Below, piece by piece: positions 2,162 through 52,219 of a DNA stretch of 52,755 bases. Position numbers and translations under genes: made by a program. Under the pieces are notes generated by a model. The model saw only the letters and a list, made by a program, of their open reading frames with translations. It searched no databases and was not told the DNA's origin. Position 1 is the stretch's first letter; every line of letters starts with the position of its first letter. Origin of the DNA: Trichomonas gallinae (Eukaryota); assembly GCA_008369845.1 (NCBI GenBank), contig MRSU01003035.1, forward strand, positions 1 through 52,755, given 5' to 3'.

Positions 2162-5100
2162 ATGTTTTGGATCTTTTTTGGGTTCATCAAATGTTATGAT
2201 GACTTTGATGATTTCGATCCTGACGAAAACCCCGAGTACAGTTACTTTGTATCGAAAAAGAAAGGTGCAATCATTGGTGTGCCGAAATCTGTTGGAAAAC
2301 CATGCATTAATCCGCGGTTTACTGGTGCTTTTGTTATAGATCCATCTGTAACTTTGGATGGACAGACATATCCTATAAATGGAATTGGAAAATACGCGTT
2401 TTATCAAACAAGAATTCAATCGATATCTTTTCCTGAAAGTGTTACAAAGATTTATGAGTATGCATTTTCAGGTTGCCACTATCTAGAAATCGTAGACTTA
2501 TCTAAAACAAAAATTGACGCGATTAAAGATTCTGCATTTTCAAATACTTCGATTCGAAACATTTTATTGCCTCAGTCATTGACAGAAATCGGTAATTTCG
2601 CATTTGCAACATCACCAATTACAGAAATTAAACTTCCGAGTACAGTAACAAAATTAGGAAATTATCTCTGCTGTAATTGTACAAAACTGAAAACAGCTGA
2701 CTTATCAGCTGCAGGCACAGCTGATCTTCCAAAATGCTGCTTCAGAGGCTGTGTTTCTCTTTCAACAGTTAAATTACCTTCGAAATTAGTAAATATCCAC
2801 AACGAAGCATTTTCTTACACAGCAATTTCTTCAATAACAATACCGCAGAACTGCTTAACATTTGGCCGCCTCGCTTTCTCTTATTGTTCGCTTTTAACAG
2901 AAATCAAACTTCCAAACAAAATGAGTAATATTGACTATGGTTGTTTCAAAGGTTGTGTGTCGCTGAAGAAAATTGATATGAGCTCGATCAATATTACAAT
3001 GTTTTCAAATGATTTATTCAGAGATTGCACTTCGTTGACGACAATTGTCTATCCAAAAGGTTTCAACTCGTTCGGTGAGTTCTCTTTATCAGCAACACAC
3101 ATGAAGGAGTTAACACTTTCATCCGAAATCACAAATATTCAACGTGGAGCCTTCAGTTGGAACGTTTTCTTGCAGAAAGTTGACCTCTCTGCATTGAATC
3201 TTGACAGTCTTCCAGACGAAATCTTCAGAATGTGCACACATCTCAAATCCGTCACTCTGCCATCGAAGATTAAACGAATCCCAGAGCGTGCTTTTGCTCA
3301 GTGTGTCTCCCTTAAGTCCATCGATATGACAAAGACATCTATAAACACAATTGGAATAAATGCATTTTATATGTGTTCAACACTTGCTGAGATTTCATTC
3401 CCAGAAAGCCTTTCTTCGATCGAAGATGGTGCTTTCGCTTCCTGTGCGTTCATTGAATTCACAGCTCCCGCATCTTTGAATTTCATTGGTGCTCAGGCTT
3501 TCTTTTCATGCAGAAAACTGAAGACAGCAGATCTTGCAAACTCAGCCATAACAGATCTTTCCGATTTTGCGTTCGCTGTCTGCACATCTTTAACAAAAAT
3601 CACAATTCCAACCACATTGAGAACAATTGGTGCCTCAGCACTCGCTGATACAGCAATTTCAACAATCGCTAAGAGCTCATTCGGCGAAAAAATTACATCT
3701 ATCGGCTCCCGCGCATTTGAAAATTGCAAAGAACTCAGAAACATCGATATTTCCGGTACATCCGTCACAGTTCTCAACGGTACATTCCGTGGATGCAATA
3801 ACCTCGCCATCTGCAAACTCCCAGCCAATATCCAGAGAATCGAAGATTCACCATTCTTCGGAACAGCAATTACACCTCTTCCTATCCCAGAGACATTAAC
3901 ATCCCTGGGTCCAGGAGCTTTCGCGAATACATCTTTCAACGGAGAAGGCCTCCCAACAACCTTGACATCCATTGGTGACTACGCGTTCGCTTGGTGCCCG
4001 TCTTTGACATCACTAGACTTCTCCAAGTCGACAATAACATCCATCGGAAACTACGCTTTCTTCAACTCTTCTCTCAAGACCATCCAGTGGCCAACAACTT
4101 TGCAATTCATCGGCCGCAACTTATTCTTATTGACACCTTACAAGGACGTCAAACTCCCAGCATCAATAAACGATTTGGCTGTCGCAGCATTCGAGGCCAA
4201 CACAATCAAGACACTGGATATGAGTGACACAGCTGTCTTCGACCTGCCAAATCGCACATTCGCTCACACTAAAGAACTCATCGAAGTCAAGCTGCCAAAC
4301 ACGATAAGGTCTATTGGCGACCACTGTTTCTTCGGTTCTTCTATTCAGAAAATTGAGCTGCCAAAGACAGTTAGTCAGCTTGGCCCAGCTGCTTTTGGTA
4401 TGACACAATCCTTGACTTCAATTGATTTCTCATCTACAGCTGTCAAAAACATATCAGCCGCCTGCTTCTTCAATTCTTCCATTGCCAGAGTAGTACTTCC
4501 ACAGAACTGCACAATCTTCGAGTGGGCTTTCGCTTTGAGTGATTTAACAGGCTTGTCTGGAAGCATCTTCTGGATGGGTAGATATGCTTTCTTCTACTGC
4601 CACAAACTGGCTAGAATCAGTTTGACGCAAGACTGCTACTTCACAGATGTCGCTGATCACTGCTTCTCTCACTGCTTCAAACTGTCAGAAGTCAAACTAC
4701 CCTCAAATCTGACGGTCGTCCACAATCTCGCTTTCTGCAACTGCACATCTCTTAAACAAGTCAACCTCGCTGAGACACAAGTCAGGCAGCTTTTGTATGG
4801 TGCTTTTGCAAATTGCACGAAATTGACAGGCTACTCTATACCAGCCACTTGCACACAGATCGGCGATGAATGCTTCTTGAATACGTCAATTTTCTCTGTC
4901 GAACTTAACAAAGAAATTTCAACAATCGGAACAGGTGCTTTCAGATCATGTCACCACTTGAAGAACATAGATATGTCGAAGACATCTGTCACGAAGATCT
5001 TGAACAAATGCTTCAGCGGATGCTTCGCTTTGAACGATATTCAGCTGCCTGAGAAATTAGAAACAATCGGTAACTACGCCTTCCAGCACTGCGGCATCAC

Positions 5101-6493
5101 ATATATAACAATGCCAGAAACACTGAAAGGACTTGGCCGTATGGCTTTCTCTGGCTGCTATAACTTGCAGTCAGCTGATCTCTCGAAGACAGCAATGATA
5201 TCTATAGCTTGTGGTGCATTTTCTAACTGCTCGAAGCTCTCCAAAGTCATCCTTCCTCCAAAACTCTCTAGACAGAACTCTAAAGTTCCACTCTGGTTGT
5301 ATGAAACAACAACAGTCTACGTTAACTTCTTCAATGAAACACACAGACCGAACTACAACCAGGATGAAGTTGTCGCGGAATACTCAGAGCCACACGAATT
5401 CGTCCTCGCACAGTCCGGCCCATTGTCAAACGCACATTCATTAACAGAGTTCGATTTATCCAATACAAAGATGGTAGACTTATTCCCATGGTTCTTATAT
5501 AACGCAACATCATTAACAGACGTCAGACTGCCAAACACACTCGCGACAATCGGCGAAGGTGTCTTCGGTAACACAGCTATCACAAAAATTGTCATTCCAA
5601 ATTCAGTTACAAACATTGGACCTTCTGCCTTCAGAAACTGCGCTAAACTGACAACAATTGATTTAGAGAAATTGAACTTCACAGTTATTGGATCGTCCAT
5701 GTTCCTTGGCACTCGCAAATTACAGTCAGCCAAGTTGCCACCAAAGACAGAAACAATTGGCAACTTTGCATTCTTCAATTCATCGATCGGCAACATTAAC
5801 TTGCCACCAACAGTTGAGACACTTGGCAGATCAGTTTTCGCTTACTCCAACCTCGAGACTATTAACCTTCAGAAGACAAAGGTCACAAAGATTCCTGACC
5901 ACGGATTTTTGGGAACTGAGAAACTGAAGAATATCACGTTTAATCCAGATACGACACATATAGGTCGTGCTGCGTTCATGAACTCCGGAATAGAATCCAT
6001 TGATATCCCATCTAAAGTACAATCTATAGAGTCACTTGCTTTTGCAGGCTGCAGGAAATTAAAGACTGCGACATTGACTCATTGCACACTTAACAGAATT
6101 CCTTACGGCGTATTCGCTTTCTGCACATCATTAGAGACGGTGAATTTGCCGTCGGGACTCATGTACGTTCACGACGATGCGTTTGAGGGCTGCACAGCTC
6201 TCCGCACTGTCTACTATTTCGGATGCAATGTCATTGCATCTAAGGCGCTCGGCAAACTGAAGACAGTTGACGAGCTTGAAGTTTTAGTTCTCGAGAACTT
6301 CCCACACAGAGAATTTCTCGGCGCCAGAGTTTCATCTTTCTACAACTCTGACCTCGAGGAGCAGCTAGAGCAGGCACAGTGTGCAAAGCGCGGCCTCATC
6401 AGAGATTACAGGCCGCAGACTATACCAGATCCCAAGTACCCACGCGTCGAGATGGGCAGACTCATGCGTATCACATACAAAGAACACGACTAA
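2162..6493 (+). CDS. BspA-like leucine-rich repeat protein (TpLRR/LRR_5 type), 1443 aa
   Basis: Dozens of ~23-aa repeats (xLPxxLxxIGxxAFxxCxxL alternating with DLSxTxIxxIxxxAF); short hydrophobic N-terminus MFWIFFGFIKC; no obvious C-terminal transmembrane segment. Confidence 0.93.
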   Translation: MFWIFFGFIKCYDDFDDFDPDENPEYSYFVSKKKGAIIGVPKSVGKPCINPRFTGAFVIDPSVTLDGQTYPINGIGKYAFYQTRIQSISFPESVTKIYEYAFSGCHYLEIVDLSKTKIDAIKDSAFSNTSIRNILLPQSLTEIGNFAFATSPITEIKLPSTVTKLGNYLCCNCTKLKTADLSAAGTADLPKCCFRGCVSLSTVKLPSKLVNIHNEAFSYTAISSITIPQNCLTFGRLAFSYCSLLTEIKLPNKMSNIDYGCFKGCVSLKKIDMSSINITMFSNDLFRDCTSLTTIVYPKGFNSFGEFSLSATHMKELTLSSEITNIQRGAFSWNVFLQKVDLSALNLDSLPDEIFRMCTHLKSVTLPSKIKRIPERAFAQCVSLKSIDMTKTSINTIGINAFYMCSTLAEISFPESLSSIEDGAFASCAFIEFTAPASLNFIGAQAFFSCRKLKTADLANSAITDLSDFAFAVCTSLTKITIPTTLRTIGASALADTAISTIAKSSFGEKITSIGSRAFENCKELRNIDISGTSVTVLNGTFRGCNNLAICKLPANIQRIEDSPFFGTAITPLPIPETLTSLGPGAFANTSFNGEGLPTTLTSIGDYAFAWCPSLTSLDFSKSTITSIGNYAFFNSSLKTIQWPTTLQFIGRNLFLLTPYKDVKLPASINDLAVAAFEANTIKTLDMSDTAVFDLPNRTFAHTKELIEVKLPNTIRSIGDHCFFGSSIQKIELPKTVSQLGPAAFGMTQSLTSIDFSSTAVKNISAACFFNSSIARVVLPQNCTIFEWAFALSDLTGLSGSIFWMGRYAFFYCHKLARISLTQDCYFTDVADHCFSHCFKLSEVKLPSNLTVVHNLAFCNCTSLKQVNLAETQVRQLLYGAFANCTKLTGYSIPATCTQIGDECFLNTSIFSVELNKEISTIGTGAFRSCHHLKNIDMSKTSVTKILNKCFSGCFALNDIQLPEKLETIGNYAFQHCGITYITMPETLKGLGRMAFSGCYNLQSADLSKTAMISIACGAFSNCSKLSKVILPPKLSRQNSKVPLWLYETTTVYVNFFNETHRPNYNQDEVVAEYSEPHEFVLAQSGPLSNAHSLTEFDLSNTKMVDLFPWFLYNATSLTDVRLPNTLATIGEGVFGNTAITKIVIPNSVTNIGPSAFRNCAKLTTIDLEKLNFTVIGSSMFLGTRKLQSAKLPPKTETIGNFAFFNSSIGNINLPPTVETLGRSVFAYSNLETINLQKTKVTKIPDHGFLGTEKLKNITFNPDTTHIGRAAFMNSGIESIDIPSKVQSIESLAFAGCRKLKTATLTHCTLNRIPYGVFAFCTSLETVNLPSGLMYVHDDAFEGCTALRTVYYFGCNVIASKALGKLKTVDELEVLVLENFPHREFLGARVSSFYNSDLEEQLEQAQCAKRGLIRDYRPQTIPDPKYPRVEMGRLMRITYKEHD

Positions 6494-7027: not shown

Positions 7028-7924
7028 TCAGCTGAATGAAACGTTGTGTTTCAAGATTCTTGCATCGCCGGGTCCTCCCCCTGTAGCGATCATAGACATA
7101 GTTGGATGGCACGCTATAGCGTAGCTCTGCGGCATGTGAACTTCTCGCTCGAAAAGACTTTGTAAACTATCCATGTCGACAATTTTAAGGAGTCCGTCCA
7201 TCAAAAACGCGATATATTGGTGCTGCTGAGGTGTTGTGAAAATGCTGTACTGTCTGGACGAAAACTCTGAGTTTATTTTTTCTATCTCCATGTTGTTTGC
7301 AAGATTCTTCATGCGAATCAAGCCATTGTCGCCTAATACAATTGCGAGCTCATCTTTTTTGAACAATTTAATCTGCCAGAGTCCAGAGCATTCTGTATTA
7401 AAGCTCTGGTAACAAATGTGACGCACTGGGGAGTTCATTAACGGAAAAGTATTAAACATTCGAATAATTCCATCTGTAGATGTTGTAAGAAACGCATTTT
7501 TTTCAGTCATTATGGTTATAGAAGTAATAGGGAATATAGAAGCTGGTATTACAATAGGAACTGAGTCTTGTTTATAATGTAAAACAACTGTTCCATCCGA
7601 AAATCCAGATAATGAGAAGATTTTTTGGGATGATGTAATACAAAGTGCTTGTTTATCTTCACCTGAATCATAAAATACCTCTGAAATACTATTTTTGATA
7701 TCAACAAGAAAAATTGAGCCATCTTTTCGTGCGCACATAATAATGTATCCATTAGAATGCCATGCGAAACGATTAATATATCCAATGTTGTCGATTTTTC
7801 TAATTGAAACTAAATCGTTACTTTTATATATTTGCAAATTACCATCCGTGGATGAAGCAGCAAGCAACGTCCCCGTTGGACTGAATTCGCAGCATGAAAT
7901 TCCATACGAAACCGGATTATTCAT
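7028..7924 (-). CDS. WD40-repeat protein
   Basis: Repeats CEFSPTGTLLAASSTDGNLQIY, FAWHSNG...RKDGSIFL, LTTSTDGIIRMF, IACHPTMSMIATGG; first ATG at 7924 (the ORF-track start at 7972 is non-ATG). Confidence 0.85.
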   Translation of the reverse strand: MNNPVSYGISCCEFSPTGTLLAASSTDGNLQIYKSNDLVSIRKIDNIGYINRFAWHSNGYIIMCARKDGSIFLVDIKNSISEVFYDSGEDKQALCITSSQKIFSLSGFSDGTVVLHYKQDSVPIVIPASIFPITSITIMTEKNAFLTTSTDGIIRMFNTFPLMNSPVRHICYQSFNTECSGLWQIKLFKKDELAIVLGDNGLIRMKNLANNMEIEKINSEFSSRQYSIFTTPQQHQYIAFLMDGLLKIVDMDSLQSLFEREVHMPQSYAIACHPTMSMIATGGGPGDARILKHNVSFS

Positions 7925-8023
7925 GTCAAAATACTTTTGACAAATAAATTCATTTTTGACAAGTAATGTCAAATTTTGTCAAAATGCATCATTGGTGATA
8001 TATTTATTCACATAGAGCTGATC

Positions 8024-10355: not shown

Positions 10356-11822
10356 TTATAGGTGAGGCAAGCAGAGAGAGAATGCACAAAGAGGTGAAAG
10401 TGGGTATCTCAGTTCACCAGCGAAGGCAGTTTTATGGATTTTGCCGAAGAACAAAACCGGATTCTTCATGTTTTCTTTTTCGACTAAGATGAAATTCTTG
10501 ACTGAACTAGTATGAACTCTGCTGCCAAAATCCAGGAACTGGACCCCATCTTTCATTATAGGAGGCTTAGGCTTGTATTCTTTCACGTGGGCGTCACCTT
10601 TCACAAGATTTGAGCTGTCGCCAGCCGGAAATGTGGAACAGTTTGCAGGGAGGTAAACTTTGAACTGTCTGTATGTGGAGTTTTGAGTTAATAATGATTT
10701 GAATTCTATTGCAGATATTTCTCTGTTCTCTGAAACAGTGAAAAAAGATAATCTCGAAAAATTTGATGAAGTCTTAGCAATAACTTTGTCTGGTGTGTTA
10801 GATAATGTGTACTTGATTACAATACCAGAAATAGAGGTTTCTATGTACGCAGTCATGATTTGCATATTTGTAGTTTCATCAATATAAGCAAATGCCTGTG
10901 TTTTCTTGCTATCTTCAATGAGCTGTATTCTAAACAATGATGATGAACCCACAGGCACTGGAGAATAAATATTTGTAGAATCAACAACGTATTTCATGCC
11001 TTCATCTTGGTTTATTTCTTCTTCATATGATTCTTCTTCGCCTAAATCTTTGACCTCTAATGAAATAGGAGCTTTTGAGCTTGAATCTGGTAATGGCACA
11101 ATTGAATCTCTTGGAGGTGACCAGGGTTTTTCATTTATTTCGATTTTAGGAGGTGGACCAGCTGGCATTTTGATTTGTTTCGGTGGTTCTTCGATAATTG
11201 GTGGAGGATTTAGTGGTTCTGAAATTTTAATTTCATGTGGTGGAGAATCAACAGTTATTGGTGGTGTAATTGTAGGCTCAACAACTTTTATGCGTGGTTG
11301 AGGTGTTGTAACAAGTTTTGGTGGCGGATTTGAAGGTGGTGCAATATTTAATTTGATTTCATCAGGATTGAGATCAGCTTTGATTGAAGAACGTCTTAAT
11401 ACTGGTTTTGCAGGTGCTTTAGGCTCATGTGGAGGATTTATTTGAATTGTATTCGATTTTGTTGGAGTTGAAGGAGTAATATTATCGTTATTAACTTGTT
11501 TTATTGGCGAATTGATTAATTGTATTGGATTCTTTTGTTGTTCTATTGGAATATTAACGGAAATTAATTCTTCTCTGTTTGAAATGAGTTTTCTTCGAGG
11601 TCTAATGAAGTTTTCGTTATTAGGACCATGAATAGATGGTTGTTGTATCTCTATTTTTTGCAAAAATTGTTTGCTATTATTTGAATTTGATGAAAGTGGA
11701 ATATAGCTTGGTTTGTAGTTGAGAAAACTGACCATATCTACTTCTCCGGCGTAAAGCAAATTAGAATTTTTAAATTTATGCTGATATGATTCAAGATATG
11801 ATTCTATATTTTCTTCATCCAT
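10356..11822 (-). CDS. Tubby C-terminal domain protein with a Pro-rich N-terminal half
   Basis: LDFGSRVHTSSVKNFILV...FGKIHKTAFAGELRYPLSPLCAFSLCL matches the Tubby signature; Inr-like TCATTTTT immediately upstream of the ATG. Confidence 0.85.
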   Translation of the reverse strand: MDEENIESYLESYQHKFKNSNLLYAGEVDMVSFLNYKPSYIPLSSNSNNSKQFLQKIEIQQPSIHGPNNENFIRPRRKLISNREELISVNIPIEQQKNPIQLINSPIKQVNNDNITPSTPTKSNTIQINPPHEPKAPAKPVLRRSSIKADLNPDEIKLNIAPPSNPPPKLVTTPQPRIKVVEPTITPPITVDSPPHEIKISEPLNPPPIIEEPPKQIKMPAGPPPKIEINEKPWSPPRDSIVPLPDSSSKAPISLEVKDLGEEESYEEEINQDEGMKYVVDSTNIYSPVPVGSSSLFRIQLIEDSKKTQAFAYIDETTNMQIMTAYIETSISGIVIKYTLSNTPDKVIAKTSSNFSRLSFFTVSENREISAIEFKSLLTQNSTYRQFKVYLPANCSTFPAGDSSNLVKGDAHVKEYKPKPPIMKDGVQFLDFGSRVHTSSVKNFILVEKENMKNPVLFFGKIHKTAFAGELRYPLSPLCAFSLCLPHL

Positions 11823-27205: not shown

Positions 27206-29902
27206 TTATTCTTGTTCAATACATGATTTAACTTTCTTCAGCATGATGTGTCTGAGTGTCTCACTTGGCACAGTCATTCTTGCCTCAGAAATGAACTCTA
27301 TAAGGACGTGCTCATAATCCTCCTTTGTATTAGCTTCAAGGAGAAGCTGGATGCAGATTTTCATGTTCTGCAATGAAATGATTGGAATTCTCTCGCATAA
27401 CATTGATGCGAGGACATTGATTGTACCTTTGATATTGTCAGTATCATCAAACAAACTGACTTGAACTCTCTCTGCGGAAATGAAAACAAACAGCTTGATA
27501 ATGTATCTGATTATCGTATCCAGACAGAACTTGTGCGAAGGCTCTGTCGCAATGAACATCATCGTTGACATAACAGGAAGCAGGAAACTCCTAAAGAATC
27601 CCTGTCTGTCTCCTTCCCTCAAATTCATGTCAGCTTTAGTGACAGTGTTTTCGATTGCATTGATTGCAGATGTGATGGCTGTTTGATCCTGGCACTGAAC
27701 TAGGTCCAATAAGAAACCCATGTCTGTCTCGAGATTACACGGGTCACCTTCAAGAGAGATTTGGAAGTAGCCCTGTATGTATGCGTTGATGACACCAGGA
27801 ATCAAATACTGGAATGTTGGCTCTGGGAAGTCATCATCAGCAATCATCTGCTTTGTTGGGTCAATGATGAGCTGGTGGATTTCTTGTGCTTCTTCTGGCT
27901 TCAATTCGAGCTTCAACAATGCTTCCGCCAACTGCAATGCCTCGATTTGTCTGATCGATGGTGCTGAGTTTGCATAGATCGACAAAATTGGCTTGCACTG
28001 CTTGATACCTGCAGTCTTGAACAAAACTGTTGCTGTCCTGCAGAAAGCGTACATCTCCTTTTCTTCATCATGACCGCTCAGATCGTGAAGTGGTGTCAAA
28101 TGTGTTTCAAAATCTGTTAGCAAAATTGTCAAGTCTTCAATCATTCTTGATACGATTTTAGATATGTATCCTGGATCAGCCTTAGCAAAGCCAAGAAGGA
28201 TGGCAAGCACGAAATGAGTGTGGACAACTACATCTTTGTTGTTCTGGAAATCTTTTGTGGCTGTCCATCTTTCTAAGGCCATGTCGACGAGTTTTGACAA
28301 TTTCGATTTCGCGTGATAAATTTTTCCGAAACCTTCGCAGACATCTGTGTAAACGTCAGGTGCCAAAATGACATTGTTCATGATCAAGTCTGTCAGATCG
28401 GGCAGATTCGTAACTAATGAGGCACAGTTTGATCCAATCGCGAGAATTGTGTTTGCAGACATCTTTCGCAAATTCTCAGAAACTAAGCCTGTTGTCGCCA
28501 AATTCAATGCGATCGATATAAACTGTGGAGTGAGTTTTTGAGCTTTAGCGTAAGCAGCCACCAAGTAGAGGAAGCAGGCGGCTACAACTGAATGTATCTC
28601 TTTTGTCAATTTAGAGTTCTTAAAAGCCTGAAGAATGAACTGGAGAGACTCGACGACGAAATGTCCTTCGACGACTGAACCTGTAGCTCCTGTGATGCAT
28701 GCAATTGACCAGATGACAGACAAAAACAGCTTCGGCTTGAAGACGCTGTTGAGTTCGTTGAATATTCCTGCGACAGCTGGCATAACTTTTTCTGGCTCCA
28801 TTGTCAGAATTGCGACGAAAATGTTGCGGAACTGCGAATATTCGAGCATCGCATTTTCGTCGAGCGATGTATCGCCTTCTCCTGGCAAGATGAAGCCTGG
28901 TGGCTGTGGCATGTTCCTCAAGACGTAATCTCTTAAGTGACCAAATAGTTCTTGGTATAAAGTGAATCTGTCGAGCCTGGATTCGGTTTTATATGTCTCG
29001 AAAACTCCTAAGATGAAATTTTCCCAGAAATCAAGATGAGTCTGAAAGTCGAGCTCTGCAATTTTGTTGAGGACTCCTCTGACGTTGGCCAGCTGCTCTA
29101 CTTCAAGTACTTTTGCGTGCTTAATCAAAACTGGGCAGATGCTGTTGAATACCTCTTCTGAAGGCAAATTTTCGATCATCGAGCATAGATGAGGGAAAAC
29201 CATTTTAATGATTTCTGGTGTGCATCCATCGATGCAGATAAGTGTGCACAACAATGCAAATACCTGGGGGTCTTGGTTTTGGCCAAGAGAGTTGAATTTT
29301 GCAATATCAACATCTTCCCATTTAATGTAAGGCAAAAATGCATCAAGAGCACGCTTCGCGTCATTACTTGGAACAGCATCAATGCAAGCACTGATAATTG
29401 GCTTCTTAAATCCAAGCATTTTGTCGTGAATTTGTTTTAATTTTGCTGGTGTAATTTTCGTTGAGTCAGAATCAGTAACCTGTAGTAAAAAGTTGGCAAG
29501 CACACCGAAATTGCCTGCTGGTGCTGATAAAATGTCTTCAAAGAATGCGGGCCATTTTTCTGGGAAGTCTTTGATAGCAATATTAGCGAGAATGTTCGAC
29601 AACTGTCTATTGATGACATTTGAATGTGATTGTAAGTTATTTATAATGAATGATCTCATGCCTTCTTTCATTCCTGGATTTAATCCATCCCAATTGTTTT
29701 CAACGCATTTGCTAAGAACTATACACGCGACATTTTCTACTTGTTCATTGCCGACGCCCATTAATGCTTCAACATAATTTATAGAATCTTCAGCATCGAC
29801 GAATTCAGCAAGAAAAGCAAGGCATTCCTGTTGACGACGTGAATTCGGATCATATGCATCGCTGACGCGGCTTATAACGTTTTGTACAGTATAATCAGTC
29901 AT
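27206..29902 (-). CDS. Divergent exportin-1/CRM1-like karyopherin
   Basis: Importin-beta N-terminal-like region (VLSKCVENNWDGL); LSNILANIAIKDFPEKWPAFFEDI; LRDYVLRNMPQP...EYSQFRNIFVAILTME and LSVIWSIACITGA...EGHFVVESL parallel CRM1 HEAT 9-11. Confidence 0.75.
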   Translation of the reverse strand: MTDYTVQNVISRVSDAYDPNSRRQQECLAFLAEFVDAEDSINYVEALMGVGNEQVENVACIVLSKCVENNWDGLNPGMKEGMRSFIINNLQSHSNVINRQLSNILANIAIKDFPEKWPAFFEDILSAPAGNFGVLANFLLQVTDSDSTKITPAKLKQIHDKMLGFKKPIISACIDAVPSNDAKRALDAFLPYIKWEDVDIAKFNSLGQNQDPQVFALLCTLICIDGCTPEIIKMVFPHLCSMIENLPSEEVFNSICPVLIKHAKVLEVEQLANVRGVLNKIAELDFQTHLDFWENFILGVFETYKTESRLDRFTLYQELFGHLRDYVLRNMPQPPGFILPGEGDTSLDENAMLEYSQFRNIFVAILTMEPEKVMPAVAGIFNELNSVFKPKLFLSVIWSIACITGATGSVVEGHFVVESLQFILQAFKNSKLTKEIHSVVAACFLYLVAAYAKAQKLTPQFISIALNLATTGLVSENLRKMSANTILAIGSNCASLVTNLPDLTDLIMNNVILAPDVYTDVCEGFGKIYHAKSKLSKLVDMALERWTATKDFQNNKDVVVHTHFVLAILLGFAKADPGYISKIVSRMIEDLTILLTDFETHLTPLHDLSGHDEEKEMYAFCRTATVLFKTAGIKQCKPILSIYANSAPSIRQIEALQLAEALLKLELKPEEAQEIHQLIIDPTKQMIADDDFPEPTFQYLIPGVINAYIQGYFQISLEGDPCNLETDMGFLLDLVQCQDQTAITSAINAIENTVTKADMNLREGDRQGFFRSFLLPVMSTMMFIATEPSHKFCLDTIIRYIIKLFVFISAERVQVSLFDDTDNIKGTINVLASMLCERIPIISLQNMKICIQLLLEANTKEDYEHVLIEFISEARMTVPSETLRHIMLKKVKSCIEQE

Positions 29903-29931
29903 TTTACAGAAATTTTGTCTCTTAAAATTTC

Positions 29932-30122
29932 TGTCATATAAAATTGTTTTTTGTCATGTAAATTTGTTCCTGTTCTGAAAATATTTGTCATGTAAATTTT
30001 ATTTTGTCGCGTAAATCTTTGTAAAATTGTGTTTGGACTGATAGATTTGTCATGTAAATTATTGTATTTTTTAAATTTGTCGAGTAAATTTGTTTTTGTA
30101 GTGTAAATATATGTCATGTAAA
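29932..30122. promoter_or_regulatory. Cluster of ~7 copies of TGTCATGTAAA-like motif upstream of the CRM1-like gene
   Basis: tgtcatataaa, tgtcatgtaaa (x4), tgtcgcgtaaa and tgtcgagtaaa within 190 nt, all in the same orientation. Confidence 0.6.
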
Positions 30123-31862: not shown

Positions 31863-32585
31863 ATGCAGCAAGCGATTCGTGTATTTGAGGAAAATGCAAA
31901 GCAAGCATCATGTTCTCTGGAAGAAATTGAAGCTAGAGCTAGCTCAGAATTCCCTTCTGCTGCTCCAATATTAAAATTATGCCAAAGATTACGAGAAGCC
32001 AAAATTCGATATCAAATTTTATTTGAAAACATCAGTAAAATACAAGATGCTAATGAAAACCTTCAAAAATGCATTGCAAGTGATCTGATGCCAACTGCAA
32101 AACAAGTTAAAGCAGCTTGTGCACATGAAGGAGTACAAGTTCCTTCAATAATTCCAGAACAAGTCACAAAACAAGCAATATTAAAAGCTGCAACACCAGC
32201 ACCAACACCAACAACAACGACACAGGCGGCAGCAGCAACAACAACTACAACTACAAAGTCGAAGTTACCACAACCGAGAAAATCAAGGAAATCTGAGCCT
32301 GCAAAGCCGCAACATGAATATATTGAGATTACAGATGATGAATTTAACGCTATACCTGATTATCTCAGAAGATCAGTTAAAATTGATGAACTTCGCCAAG
32401 TACATCAATTCATTTTCAATTTCTTCTACGGATCAGCAAGAGAAGAAGAATCTATGCCAAGAAAAGAGTTTCTCAATATTGAAAATAGTGCAATCAAAAG
32501 GAAAATAGAATCAGTGTTGAAATGCTTGAAATACATAAAGAAGATCCAAATGGATAGGTCCAATAACGTTATCCAATGTGTATAA
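31863..32585 (+). CDS. Spindle and kinetochore-associated (SKA2-like) protein
   Basis: N-terminal FEENAKQASCSLEEIEAR...PILKLCQRLREAKIRYQIL resembles the Ska2 coiled coil; C-terminal ITDDEFNAIPDYLR resembles the Ska1-type winged helix; Thr/Ala/Pro linker between them. Confidence 0.6.
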   Translation: MQQAIRVFEENAKQASCSLEEIEARASSEFPSAAPILKLCQRLREAKIRYQILFENISKIQDANENLQKCIASDLMPTAKQVKAACAHEGVQVPSIIPEQVTKQAILKAATPAPTPTTTTQAAAATTTTTTKSKLPQPRKSRKSEPAKPQHEYIEITDDEFNAIPDYLRRSVKIDELRQVHQFIFNFFYGSAREEESMPRKEFLNIENSAIKRKIESVLKCLKYIKKIQMDRSNNVIQCV

Positions 32586-34315: not shown

Positions 34316-34631
34316 ATATCTATCCAATATATATATTTGCAATAAAATATTTTAATATAGCAAAACCTAAGTGATTTGATTATAGAAAACACACTTATAT
34401 TAGCTACAATTATAAAATTTATCATAAAAATGAGACTTAACCTTATAAAATTATATCAAAAAATTTATTTCCAAAAAAATAAAGCATTTGATTATGTCAT
34501 TGATATCTTTTCGTAGTTTTTTACATTGTAATCGATGTATTGCAGTTTCTTATTGAATAAAAGGATAAAATGAAAAAATTATTTTGTGTTACAAGGCTAT
34601 AAGTGATATAAAGTGTTGTTTTTATTGCAAT

Positions 34632-35636
34632 TTAGTGTGCTGTTGTGAATTGCTTGGCGATTTCTGCGAATTCCTTTGTATCATCTTCAGCTAAGGCTGC
34701 TCTTACTGGTGTTGCATAACCAATGAATAATGAAGCGAGTGTTTGCTTAAGTGTCTTCTTTTCTAATGTTGGGAAGTCCTTAGCAAAATCATCTGTGCCA
34801 AATTCGTATTTCTTTCCATTAAATTCGAAAGAGCCATCTGTTGGGATAACAATATTGTTAACATATTCGAACACTGGGTTATCCTTAATATCATCTGTGC
34901 AGAAAGCAGCATTAAACTTATTTCCGAGTGTTTGGTCATCATCCTCGAAGAAGACTGTGTTCTTTGGATCTGGCTTCGGTGGATTTGACTTGACGCCCTT
35001 GAGCTTCATGATCTGGCGGATTGGGATGACAACTGGGGCCTCCTGGTTCTTAACTTGAGCAACACGCTCGAGAAGCTGGTAACGCTCCTCAGAAACGACA
35101 ATAACATCAGCGCTAAGCTCGCAGAGTTCAATTAAGTGGAGCATTGGAGCAATAACTGATGATGCTGTGAGTGTTTCGCGCTCCTTCTTGCCCATTGGTG
35201 GAAGGGCCTTCTGTACATCAGAAGCATTGATGTGTGTTGTGATCTCAGCGAATTTTGAGAATAATGTGAAGTTATCGATTGTATATTCATCAGAAATGAT
35301 GTACTGGACGTGCGGACCGTTGACTCCAGAAGCCTTGAGGGCCTTAATGGCGTACATTGAGGCAGCCTTAAGTTGTGCCTTGTCACGACCGAATGCGTGG
35401 TTCAAAGAAGCAACGACATCAGCGACGAAAACGATGTACTTGCCTCCAAGCTGACCAACGAGCTTGGAAACCATGACAAACTGCTGAACCTGGGCGATGT
35501 TAATACGACCATTCGGCTCAAAAGGCTGAACAACTGTGAATTCGGTCTTTCCAGCAAGCTTAGCCTTAAGGCTCTCGACAATGTCCTTGTTTGTGGAAAC
35601 AGACAAGAGACGTGTAGCAACTTGATTTGCGTCCAT
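34632..35636 (-). CDS. Tyrosyl-tRNA synthetase-like protein with degenerate catalytic motifs
   Basis: FEPNGRINIAQ, FVADVVASLN, MGKKE, DPKNTVFFEDD, AFC and DNPVFEY align with HIAQ-type eukaryotic TyrRS; HIAQ->NIAQ, KMSKS->NPPKP, YPxMQxxD->APMLHLIE. Confidence 0.8.
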   Translation of the reverse strand: MDANQVATRLLSVSTNKDIVESLKAKLAGKTEFTVVQPFEPNGRINIAQVQQFVMVSKLVGQLGGKYIVFVADVVASLNHAFGRDKAQLKAASMYAIKALKASGVNGPHVQYIISDEYTIDNFTLFSKFAEITTHINASDVQKALPPMGKKERETLTASSVIAPMLHLIELCELSADVIVVSEERYQLLERVAQVKNQEAPVVIPIRQIMKLKGVKSNPPKPDPKNTVFFEDDDQTLGNKFNAAFCTDDIKDNPVFEYVNNIVIPTDGSFEFNGKKYEFGTDDFAKDFPTLEKKTLKQTLASLFIGYATPVRAALAEDDTKEFAEIAKQFTTAH

Positions 35637-35719
35637 CTAAAAAAATTTTAGGGTTTTGTAAACTAAACAAATAAATTGAAAACAAAGCTTGTCATTAATA
35701 AGGTTATTTCTCTTTTGTG

Positions 35720-36476
35720 AAAAGTGGCAGGTTTACATGTCGGATTTGATGTGTAAAGTGTCCAAAAGTGACGTTTAATGAAGATTTCATCTTTTTTTAG
35801 ACACTGGTAAGAGAGTGTGCCACTTGTCTTCAGCAGAGTGTCTTGTTACATCATGACGCTCTGCTGCAGACAAGTGGCATCAATTTCTGTTGATCTCGCT
35901 CGAATTCTAAATTCATCGATGTTTAGATCTCGAGCGAGATCAACAGAAGGCGCCATATCTGACGCTGGCACAATCTTCCAATATTTCTTCAAACTCTTTA
36001 TCTCCAAAATTTAGTATTTCACATGCAGTATCAAAATCTTTTGAAAAATGACAGAAATGGATGCACCCCCTGTCTAATGTCACTTTTGGACACTTTACGT
36101 GTCATATCTGATATGTAAACCCTTCACTTTTTCGTTCCGAATTTCGGAACAGAACACGTCTTTTAAAGCAAGCGAGGCTTTCAACAAGATGTCATTATCA
36201 TGGAGTTTTTGTGATTGTCGCAGTTGCTCCAAACTTCACATTTGTTGAAAGCTTTGCATGCTTGGCACAAGTCCTGTGCACCAAAACATACCTGAAACAT
36301 TAATATTAGGTGTGTTTTGGTGCATAGGATGCTTGCAAATCGATCCAAAACGAAATCGGCTAGTTTAATACAATTTCGATTTCGTCCTGGACCGGCAGAA
36401 ACTAGCTGCGACAGTTCCATAGACGCCATGAGGAGCCATCCTGATGTTGTTTTTGTGACTGCAGCAACTATTTTTT
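35720..36476 (+). ncRNA. Candidate large structured non-coding RNA (identity unknown)
   Basis: Helices 35720-35775/36076-36131 (56 positions), 35818-35879, 35885-35948, 36198-36226/36403-36431, 36272-36329 and 36341-36394; non-Watson-Crick positions are mostly G-U on the + strand; no credible ORF. Confidence 0.6.
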
Positions 36477-36716
36477 CCCAAATGTCACTTTTTTAAATTG
36501 AGACCCCACCCCTCTTATAATTAAGTCCAGTTTACATGGGAAATTGACCAAAATTTTGACATGTAAAGCGTCATTTTTTGTTTGACGGAATATTATACGC
36601 TACAATTGCATGCGGATTTTCAATCGTAAAATAGTCCAATTATTGTTTTTTATTTTTTTTTTTTTTTCGACGTATAAAATATATTTACATGTCATTTTAA
36701 TTTTTAAACGGCTATA

Positions 36717-37820
36717 ATGTTAAATCCAGCATTTTCTCAGCTTTATGCTGTTGAAAATGATAAAGTCACAGATGACCTTACTAAATGGAGGCAGTTTTGT
36801 TATGCTCAAATAGTGAGGATCCAAGATATCAAGTACAAAACAAAAATGCATTCATCTTATCGAAATCAGATGATTGATCCATTAAAAGCTAAATATGATG
36901 AACTATTAGATGTGCTAAAGACTAAGGACTCTGAACTATCGGAAATTACTAATAAATTAAAATCAACGCGTGAAAATAAGGAAAAACTAAGCGAGAAATT
37001 GGATAATGCCACAACCAAAAAGTTTGATATACAGAGAAAGAAGAAATTCTATGACCAATTCCCTGAGCAATTTCGTCTAAAGATGAATAACGCAAATCAA
37101 TTCTTAGAATTCGATATTAAAGATATTTTCGCTCGTTCACATAAGGAGCTTGACAAGGTACAAGCAAAGATCGATAGGCTCATTAACCGAGTTAATTCTT
37201 ACACGCAGTTCGATACTACAATCGAAATTCCTGAAACAAGGAAATATGAAGAGAAAAAGGCTGCATTAGAAGAATTTGCGACTGAACTGGCCATATCTTT
37301 CAACCAACTGCAATTTCCTGAGTGTAAGGTTGAAATATTGCCATTATTGCAAAAATATCAAGACGTCAGGCTAGTAGAGAAGGATTTAGATACTGCTATA
37401 CGTGAAAATGATAAAATTGAGCAAGCAATTCAATCAGCTTCTCTTGAAAGCTATGAGATTAATATTCAAACGCTTCAGACGCAAATTTCACAAGAAGCAC
37501 AACGCCAAAAGCTAGAACTTGAAAGCTTGAAGTCACAATATGATTTATCAGATTTGCAAACTGAAATTGATCAATGTAATTTAACAAATTCAGATCTCGA
37601 GCACAAAATCGACGAAGAAAGAAAGAACATGAATATATTGTTGAAGCAAAAGCAAGAAGTCTTAGAAAAAGCCAATGAAGAAGCAGCAAAAAATGATGAA
37701 ATAATTCAGCAGCTAACTAAAGAATATAATTCACTTGCTCCTCTTATTCCAAAGCATTCTCATGATACAAAAGATGAGCAAGTCAATACCATCTATAATG
37801 GACCTTGGTTTAATTTTTAG
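36717..37820 (+). CDS. Coiled-coil hypothetical protein, 367 aa
   Basis: E/K/Q/L-rich heptad pattern; TCATTTT upstream. Confidence 0.8.
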   Translation: MLNPAFSQLYAVENDKVTDDLTKWRQFCYAQIVRIQDIKYKTKMHSSYRNQMIDPLKAKYDELLDVLKTKDSELSEITNKLKSTRENKEKLSEKLDNATTKKFDIQRKKKFYDQFPEQFRLKMNNANQFLEFDIKDIFARSHKELDKVQAKIDRLINRVNSYTQFDTTIEIPETRKYEEKKAALEEFATELAISFNQLQFPECKVEILPLLQKYQDVRLVEKDLDTAIRENDKIEQAIQSASLESYEINIQTLQTQISQEAQRQKLELESLKSQYDLSDLQTEIDQCNLTNSDLEHKIDEERKNMNILLKQKQEVLEKANEEAAKNDEIIQQLTKEYNSLAPLIPKHSHDTKDEQVNTIYNGPWFNF

Positions 37821-39087: not shown

Positions 39088-39517
39088 TGAAAGTGACGTT
39101 TTTTATAATTTTATAACTTTACTTGTCAAATATTATATTTACATGACAAAAATGAGCTTATTTGTCAAAAATCAATTGACAAAACAACAAATTTACGTGT
39201 CATACATATAATTCTAATTTACATGACAAAAAAATTTTTATTTGTCAAAAATTAATCTTTTTGGTTCTAAGTTAACCTGAATGATATCTGAATTAGTTTC
39301 CTCTGAAATTCATTCAATAGTCCATATGTATTAATTATTATTCTGCAATATACTCATTTTAGGATAAAAATAAAGTTATAAACATATTTACATATTTTAA
39401 TATAAAGATACTTGTGTATTATATGATTCTATTTTTAACACGCATTATCCTAAAATTCAGGAGTTATTTATTATCAAATATGAAATAAATATAATTAACA
39501 AAAACATTGTATAGTAT

Positions 39518-51721: not shown

Positions 51722-52219
51722 TTAGTGTACAGCAAGACGAGTAGCTAATCTAACAAATTGTTCATCGTTCATTTGATGTAAAGCTTCCGCATCATTTGTA
51801 ATAACCCCCGGATAGTGTCTAGTTATATGATCCATAAGATCATCAACATGAGCTTTATCTATGAATGTGATAATATAATCTGGATCAGCTTTGATATAAA
51901 TCTGATTATTTTTCGTTGCATATTTTGTTTGCGGTGTAAGAATCTTGTAAAATGCGGAATCTTCGTTGGTTTGAGTATTATTCAATAATAAAAGCGTAAG
52001 ATCATCCTGATTTTCGACTGTGCATAAGAATAATGGTCCACCAATTGGAAGCTTAATCCATTTTCTATCTTCATTCATCTTGAATAAACATACCTCTGGA
52101 TAAACGTTAAGATAGTCTTCTATGTGTCCATATTGCTGGTACTGCTTCCTTATGACCTTCAGGTTGGTGTTCTTCCTGAACTGCTGATCGAATTCGACTT
52201 GGAGGTTGATATTTTCCAT
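51722..52219 (-). CDS. Dcp1-like mRNA decapping cofactor (EVH1 domain)
   Basis: NLKVIRK...IEDYL...VCLFKM...WIKLPIGGPLFL...LLLLNN parallels Dcp1; first ATG at 52219. Confidence 0.75.
   Translation of the reverse strand: MENINLQVEFDQQFRKNTNLKVIRKQYQQYGHIEDYLNVYPEVCLFKMNEDRKWIKLPIGGPLFLCTVENQDDLTLLLLNNTQTNEDSAFYKILTPQTKYATKNNQIYIKADPDYIITFIDKAHVDDLMDHITRHYPGVITNDAEALHQMNDEQFVRLATRLAVH

Follow-up and report, generated by a model that had tools for sequence, protein, structure and literature searches.

Tyrosyl-tRNA synthetase (TyrRS) is a textbook homodimer with half-of-the-sites reactivity. The tRNA-Tyr binds across the dimer, with its anticodon on one subunit and its CCA end on the other (PMC11758952), and trypanosomatids have a double-length TyrRS in which a catalytic N-terminal half with a damaged anticodon domain is followed by a dead C-terminal half (PMC8319005, PMC9978631, PMC9437257, PMC10157851). 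All 16 double-length TyrRS picked from our matches carried HIAQ and KMSKS in the N-terminal half only and HPxDLK in the C-terminal half only. The pseudo-dimeric TyrRS of Leishmania major (3P0H-J) was reportedly described by Larson 2011 and Kaser 2018. Only the fused form is mentioned in the available part of AARS Online (PMC11580382). A solution with two genes is represented by SerRS2alpha and SLIMP of Drosophila, a biochemically proven class II mitochondrial pair in which the dead paralogue retains the tRNA-binding element lost by the catalytic subunit, a long-variable-arm coiled coil (PMC10817482). TyrRS of the mimivirus/Entamoeba clade (2J5B) have the catalytic and the anticodon motifs in one chain, and the mimivirus TyrRS is an active homodimer. 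Carter, Bedouelle and Winter reportedly found in 1986 that a dead His45Asn full-length subunit rescues charging by a C-truncated subunit without the anticodon domain; this bacterial TyrRS heterodimer was a laboratory construct, and the same HIGH histidine is Asn in the 334-aa protein described here.

The window (the whole stretch of DNA analysed, 52,755 nucleotides of Trichomonas gallinae contig MRSU01003035.1) contains one TyrRS-like gene, and a second TyrRS motif set was absent from it.

34632..35636, minus strand: gene for a TyrRS homologue of 334 aa, catalytically dead by its motifs; orthologue of T. vaginalis TVAG_364990 and proposed anticodon-binding subunit.

We confirmed the first-pass annotation of a real, full-length ORF with a TyrRS fold. 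The translated ORF was uninterrupted and had its own stop, and the closest PDB sequence match of the protein was the mimivirus TyrRS 2j5b (E 1.2e-37). The predicted fold (AF2 pLDDT 84.6) matched the Plasmodium TyrRS in Foldseek (TM 0.88, E 2e-19), and fold comparison identified a Rossmann domain, CP1 and a helical anticodon domain, as in a class Ic TyrRS homologue of the archaeal/eukaryotic type. Pfam gave no match for the protein and the NCBIfam tyrosine--tRNA ligase model scored 88 bits, below its cut-off of 220, while the ESM Atlas confirmed membership of the W/Y synthetase family. The GC3 of the gene (0.45) was the highest among 22 ORFs measured in the window, 28 of its 30 Lys codons were AAG and ATA was absent, so that its codon usage looks like that of a highly expressed gene. 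The high GC3 noted earlier was borne out. The comparison with a tubulin gene could not be confirmed, tubulin having no Pfam match among the 22 ORFs and no motif across the six frames of the window; a Tub (tubby) family protein at 10356-11822 (minus strand, GC3 0.24) was perhaps the source of the label. Elsewhere in the window, a BspA-type LRR protein (2162-6493, plus strand), an exportin-1-like protein (27206-29902, minus strand) and a Dcp1-like decapping protein (51722-52219, minus strand) are ordinary parabasalid genes, and an ORF at 31863-32585 (plus strand) had weak SKA1/SKA2 matches (E 5.7e-06, below cut-off), which would make it a possible parabasalid subunit of the spindle-kinetochore Ska complex.

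The protein belongs to a family, here called the dead family for the motif losses described below. Of 642 candidates from a word-indexed search covering proteins of up to 585 aa, nine were relatives, with lengths of 324-354 aa and 41-98% identity. A HMMER search of 1.84 billion representatives without a length limit gave 237 matches, and the 150 listed included three more full-length members and three fragments, the dead-family matches among these 150 being no longer than 342 aa. Counts for the dead family refer to 12 non-redundant full-length proteins, leaving out the near-duplicates P0002, P0003 and P0012-P0018 and the fragments P0024, P0026 and P0031. Searches with the dead-family alignment as query gave 8 pattern matches in viral contigs and 76 in JGI metagenome contigs, and P0373, an intact parabasalid-type TyrRS, gave 251 in the latter; none of these was confirmed as a locus.

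The T. vaginalis orthologue (TVAG_364990; A2FU50) was 79% identical to the 334-aa protein, and a relative with 98-99% identity differed by 4 amino-acid changes versus 40 nucleotide differences over 34478-35716. TVAG_364990 has been found as protein, with 4, 10 and 5 peptides in Tables S2-S4 and up to 46% coverage (PMC8717582). The concern, raised before, that the protein might be unexpressed or not conserved is therefore answered by the proteomic detection of this orthologue and by the conserved family. Contigs of X2 and X3, two runs taken by guess to be RNA, ended at 34604 and 34598 among the loose ends listed, about 30 nt past the stop, and contigs of the DNA-type run X1 continued, a weak hint at most. 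The T. vaginalis genome also contains an intact gene, TVAG_263250, which encodes 346 aa with a W/Y synthetase Pfam domain, and both proteins are present in all three proteomic tables (PMC8717582). The intensity ratios between TVAG_364990 and TVAG_263250 were 0.69, 1.49 and 0.52 in the three tables, as raw values from enriched fractions; the synthetase rows covered in Table S3 (30/51 places) span 3.4e6 to 1.7e10, and another synthetase-annotated row of the same study has an intensity similar to that of the pair. These intensities weakly support the pairing of the two proteins. Table S3 also lists TVAG_104060, a 406-aa 'tryptophanyl-tRNA synthetase, putative' which, like TVAG_364990, has no Pfam entry (PMC8717582); a second dead paralogue of class Ic is one possible reading.

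For comparison, a search for TyrRS shorter than 419 aa gave 5291 matches, of which the best 120 included the enzymes of Tritrichomonas foetus (341 aa) and Histomonas meleagridis (342 aa). These two and 22 further proteins at least 63% identical to the T. foetus enzyme were used as the intact parabasalid set. The motif alignment comprised 12 dead-family, 24 intact parabasalid, 55 mimivirus/Entamoeba clade and 16 plant-type proteins. Its counts compare across species rather than within one genome, as 10 of the 12 dead and 22 of the 24 intact proteins come without a named organism, the intact set leaves out TVAG_263250, and no dead copy carries T. foetus or Histomonas as its named source. Supplements to the Histomonas genome held one TyrRS row, in a table restricted to transmembrane predictions, and those of PMC7885099 gave no match.

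The losses in the catalytic domain of the 334-aa protein fall into three regions.

35490..35531, minus strand: tyrosine-site and HIGH region replaced (residues 36-49), with VQPFEP at 36-41 and NIAQ at 46-49; FEP and G-R retained.
35082..35150, minus strand: YPxMQxxD replaced by APMLHLIE (163-170) and GxDQ by SEER (182-185); residues 163-185.
34971..34985, minus strand: KMSKS replaced by NPPKP (residues 218-222).

All five replacements named earlier are present as written, and the first motif, given earlier as YDGFEP, reads YNGFEP in the mimivirus/Entamoeba clade. In one alignment, Y[ND]GFEP, H[ILV]AQ, YPx[ML]QxxD, GxDQ and KMSKS were each found in 0/12 dead-family proteins and 24/24 intact parabasalid TyrRS, and each in 54-55 of the 55 mimivirus/Entamoeba clade and 15-16 of the 16 plant-type proteins. 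Neither HIGH nor KMSKS was present in any of the 12 dead-family members, and the same was true of each tyrosine-pocket motif (Y[ND]G, YPxMQxxD, GxDQ; 0/12 per motif). Judged by these motifs, the 334-aa protein and its family are catalytically dead TyrRS homologues. Alternatively, the protein might still be catalytically active but on a different substrate, be it another amino acid or some other ligand. Databases label it a tyrosine--tRNA ligase, and the family shows little or no variation at FEP, R44, D73, P164 and E170 (Asp to Glu), but the ATP-binding motifs are gone, and the replacements of the HIGH histidine, YNG, GxDQ and KMSKS differ between members, which is in keeping with decay rather than with a new active site. 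We regard a changed substrate as highly improbable.

The anticodon domain of the same protein presents the opposite picture to that of the intact parabasalid enzymes.

34863..34919, minus strand: first anticodon-domain motif, K-x3-AFCTD plus NP (residues 240-258); K240, A244, C246, D248 and N253 invariant in 16/16 aligned family rows.
34746..34766, minus strand: second anticodon-domain motif, LEKKTLK (residues 291-297), aligned with HPxDLK; K293, K294 and K297 invariant in the family.

A[FY]C was found in 12/12 dead-family and 4/24 intact parabasalid proteins, as well as in 50/55 of the mimivirus/Entamoeba clade and 16/16 of the plant type. The second motif, as [DEN]K[KR..]x[LV]K, was present in 12/12 dead-family, 0/24 intact parabasalid and 49/55 mimivirus/Entamoeba clade proteins, and its plant/archaeal form HPxDLK was likewise found in 0/24 of the intact set. 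The dead family has A[FY]C[TN]D, [DEN]K[KR]xLK and a short anticodon loop in common with the mimivirus/Entamoeba clade, where the mimivirus form of the second motif is MNKRELK. LEKKTLK is thus a common form in this clade and a normal motif rather than a decayed one, and the first-pass description of anticodon motifs that were only partly kept was mistaken. At the same position, the sequence of the intact parabasalid TyrRS is variable and acidic and contains an insertion, and the mean net charge around the second motif is -3.1 versus +0.75 and 0.0. Conservation followed the same reciprocal pattern: the two anticodon motifs were the most conserved in the dead family (0.64 and 0.59 versus 0.34-0.48 for the catalytic regions) and the least conserved in the intact family (0.53 and 0.43 versus 0.69-0.78). 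Over the whole anticodon domain, the intact proteins were no farther from the outgroup than the dead ones (0.40 versus 0.35; conserved columns, 0.67 versus 0.60), and by this comparison the loss in the intact parabasalid TyrRS is confined to the motifs and does not extend over the C-terminal domain. The outgroup of 55 includes P0419, P0361 and P0403, all lacking the K-rich motif; P0361 and P0403 adjoin the intact clade.

As in the trypanosomatid pseudo-dimer, the dead unit keeps the anticodon motifs (12/12) and the catalytic unit has lost the second one (0/24), here across species. There, however, a single chain carries both halves and HPxDLK is used, whereas here the dead unit is encoded by a separate gene, belongs by sequence to the mimivirus/Entamoeba type and would have to find its partner in trans. 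The tRNA spans the TyrRS dimer, and with reciprocal loss of motifs this suggests a heterodimer of one catalytic and one anticodon-binding subunit. In this reading the K-rich motif would contact the anticodon, as its alignment with HPxDLK suggests. The M. jannaschii TyrRS reads G34 via Phe261, His283 and Asp286, and the mimivirus TyrRS has no Phe261 loop (PMC10135938), so that the anticodon role of the lysines is presumed from their position. His283, Asp286 and the Phe261 loop are missing across the mimivirus-type clade, and anticodon reading may therefore matter little for these enzymes.

This bears on a second explanation, in which the intact enzyme functions as a homodimer whose anticodon surface has been remodelled, and the dead protein is a facultative partner or regulator, modulating it by better tRNA capture, stabilisation or dominant-negative titration, or connecting it with a different pathway in the way that SLIMP connects SerRS2 with LON. 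Besides the G34 loop already missing from mimivirus-type TyrRS, a facultative role would fit the retention of A[FY]C in 4/24 intact parabasalid TyrRS, P0373 among them, and the well-folded C-terminal domain of the intact parabasalid-type enzyme, whose model had a pLDDT of 91.6 and 2j5b as its top Foldseek match. The interface of the intact enzyme is also conserved and symmetric-looking (within-group identity 0.65). However, the second motif is lost in 24/24, with the variable acidic segment exactly at the site that is invariant in the dead family, and the fused analogue requires both halves (PMC10157851, citing Kaser 2018). We consider a facultative partner unlikely.

The candidate complex was modelled with ESMFold2 from P0373 and the 334-aa protein, each with its alignment. 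P0373 served as a cross-species stand-in for the partner and is Trichomonas-like by guess from its length and N-terminus.

35142..35417, minus strand: predicted dimer interface (residues 74-165), formed by 74-84, 119-142 and 154-165; 29 of 33 equivalent columns are also used on the partner's side.

The pair scored 0.83, compared with 0.00 for the best of three controls; the runs agreed in at least 94% of contacts and the pLDDT of the partner was at least 85. Among solved complexes 116 of 157 reached the mark applied, and among mismatched pairs 2 of 215, numbers that carry over only roughly to this case. The predicted interface is the pseudo-symmetric CP1 surface, and in the region of residues 74-165 the dead protein lacks the basic R..QIMGR stretch that intact enzymes keep. 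The modelled pair is a heterodimer, and close relatives of a true partner also pass such a test. Moreover, the modelled complex resembles TyrRS homodimers that have already been solved, and the pass may stem from this likeness. The prediction, which is also compatible with a facultative partner, shows at the level of the model that the dead protein still fits a TyrRS dimer interface; binding itself is beyond it. A partner fused to a PLP-dependent decarboxylase was also considered and rejected, as there is no fusion in the enzymes of T. foetus and Histomonas (341-342 aa) and TVAG_263250 has 346 aa.

Fusions were encountered as a separate observation among the matches. A mimivirus-clade TyrRS was fused with a PLP-dependent group II decarboxylase in a group of proteins of 730-800 aa (P0023, P0039, P0062, P0091, P0219, P0231, P0234, P0237, P0238, P0240, P0241, P0243-P0245, P0247-P0255 and P0257). 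Two TyrRS of that clade, P0239 and the Cotonvirus protein P0242, both on contigs longer than 1 Mb, have a 90-aa N-terminal piece that by eye may be a decarboxylase remnant. TyrRS was also found joined to a Glu/Leu/Phe/Val dehydrogenase (P0040, P0048, P0049, P0057, P0061) and to an endonuclease/exonuclease/phosphatase domain (P0025, P0260). In the decarboxylase-fusion group, KMSKS is decayed in P0039 and P0034, and HIGH too in P0039, which are possibly independent pseudo-subunits.

In trees computed in quick mode, with SH-aLRT as the sole support measure, the dead family formed one clade on a long stem (SH-aLRT 100; 1.6-1.8 changes per column), and the intact parabasalid set formed one side of a branch, with P0419 inside. 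In the free tree the dead family grouped with the mimivirus/Entamoeba TyrRS and was separate from the intact parabasalid clade. In the part of PMC11304981 available, a Trichomonas TyrRS is placed in the mimivirus clade and a dead copy is not mentioned. The dead copy may have arisen by duplication with reciprocal loss or by acquisition of a xenologue. Both the long stem and the position in the free tree, with the dead family as a possible xenologue, would suit a further explanation, that the protein, as a dead homodimer, has been put to another use (tRNA trafficking, modification or another RNA) and does not act with TyrRS. There is a precedent in tRNA-binding LeuRS paralogues (PMC9437257). Forcing the dead and intact parabasalid proteins together costs only 0.05 lnL, however, and such a joint clade is not rejected (AU p 0.49); a homodimer without the basic CP1 stretch would be left with anticodon pads only, and an independent RNA-binding protein leaves the matching loss in the intact enzyme unexplained. 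We give this explanation a slim chance.

The ATG of the gene lies head-to-head with a feature that was previously taken for a structured RNA.

35720..36604, no strand assigned: foldback element rich in hairpins, present as many diverged copies in the DNA of a related organism.

The reported spacing of about 84 nt is correct, with 84 nt from the ATG at 35636 to the first inverted-repeat arm at 35720. This spacing, the folding of 35700-36520 (z -22.6, with nested inverted repeats within) and X2 contigs on parts of the element could be read as signs that the protein binds, or is co-regulated with, a structured RNA. Yet Rfam gave no match at the gathering score for 35720-36604 (23 sub-threshold matches, mostly generic hairpins), and the element behaves as a many-copy repeat. 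In X1, one contig covers the dead-TyrRS gene at a depth of 24.4-24.5, and 748 contigs fall on 35300-36900, up to 65 per position and with a summed depth of up to 270,889 (which gives no copy number), the depth being very different between the hairpin modules of the element; so many diverged contigs stacked at one place indicate a family of repeats. The relative's X1 contig fits the window to 35716 (record 5632 of 5752), and its remaining 120 letters do not match it, which suggests that the relative either lacks the element at this site or has a different one. Left ends of other copies, seen as loose ends at 35764, correspond to the reverse complement of 36480-36512 and would fit terminal inverted repeats. 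The element is probably MITE-like or a nested repeat and not part of the TyrRS system, and the suggested functional link to the protein is unsupported and, in our view, scarcely credible. Intergenic short dispersed repeats at 7924-7966, 29926-29964 and 39115-39256 contain TTTACATG and TTTGTCAAAA words that also occur at the ends of the element.

Overall, the reading we prefer is that the dead protein is, with good probability, the anticodon-binding subunit of a heterodimeric TyrRS whose catalytic TyrRS is separately encoded. The first-pass annotation had suggested a separately encoded dead partner; with the reciprocal loss, the conservation, the detection as protein and the complex score, this is now the best reading, after correction of the supposedly decayed anticodon motifs. 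The heterodimer itself is predicted from modelling. That it is obligate, and that an intact partner with the same motif loss is present in this genome, is what we infer. In the proposed mechanism, a catalytic subunit of the TVAG_263250 type would activate tyrosine and hold the acceptor end of the tRNA; the dead subunit, bound to it at the standard CP1 dimer interface, would use its AFCTD and EKKxLK motifs to clasp the anticodon loop of that tRNA. The resemblance to SerRS2alpha/SLIMP is one of analogy and not homology, the parabasalid pair being class Ic, presumably cytosolic, dependent on the anticodon domain and proposed from sequence and a model.

No description of a heterodimeric or split parabasalid TyrRS was found in the open full-text literature, the scope of this search (subscription journals and bioRxiv supplements lay outside it), judged by listed titles and the openings of abstracts; neither TVAG_364990 nor TVAG_263250 is named in the main text of any paper found there, and the available part of PMC8318970 held nothing relevant. 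We find it rather more likely than not that parabasalids (Trichomonas, Tritrichomonas, Histomonas) have a natural, obligate heterodimeric class I synthetase from two unlinked genes, in which the dead subunit may be a captured TyrRS of the giant-virus clade that let the resident enzyme lose its anticodon site. If true, this would give the trypanosomatid pseudo-dimer an unfused counterpart, and the solution seen in SerRS2/SLIMP would have arisen in class I as well. With a TyrRS made from two genes, one could test cleanly what each subunit contributes and how subunits that were duplicated or captured come to depend on each other. This reading predicts poor tRNA charging by the T. vaginalis TyrRS when expressed alone, an essential role for a gene now annotated as hypothetical or putative TyrRS, and, in these parasites of humans, cattle and birds, a dimer interface that is absent from their hosts and would be of interest for drug design.
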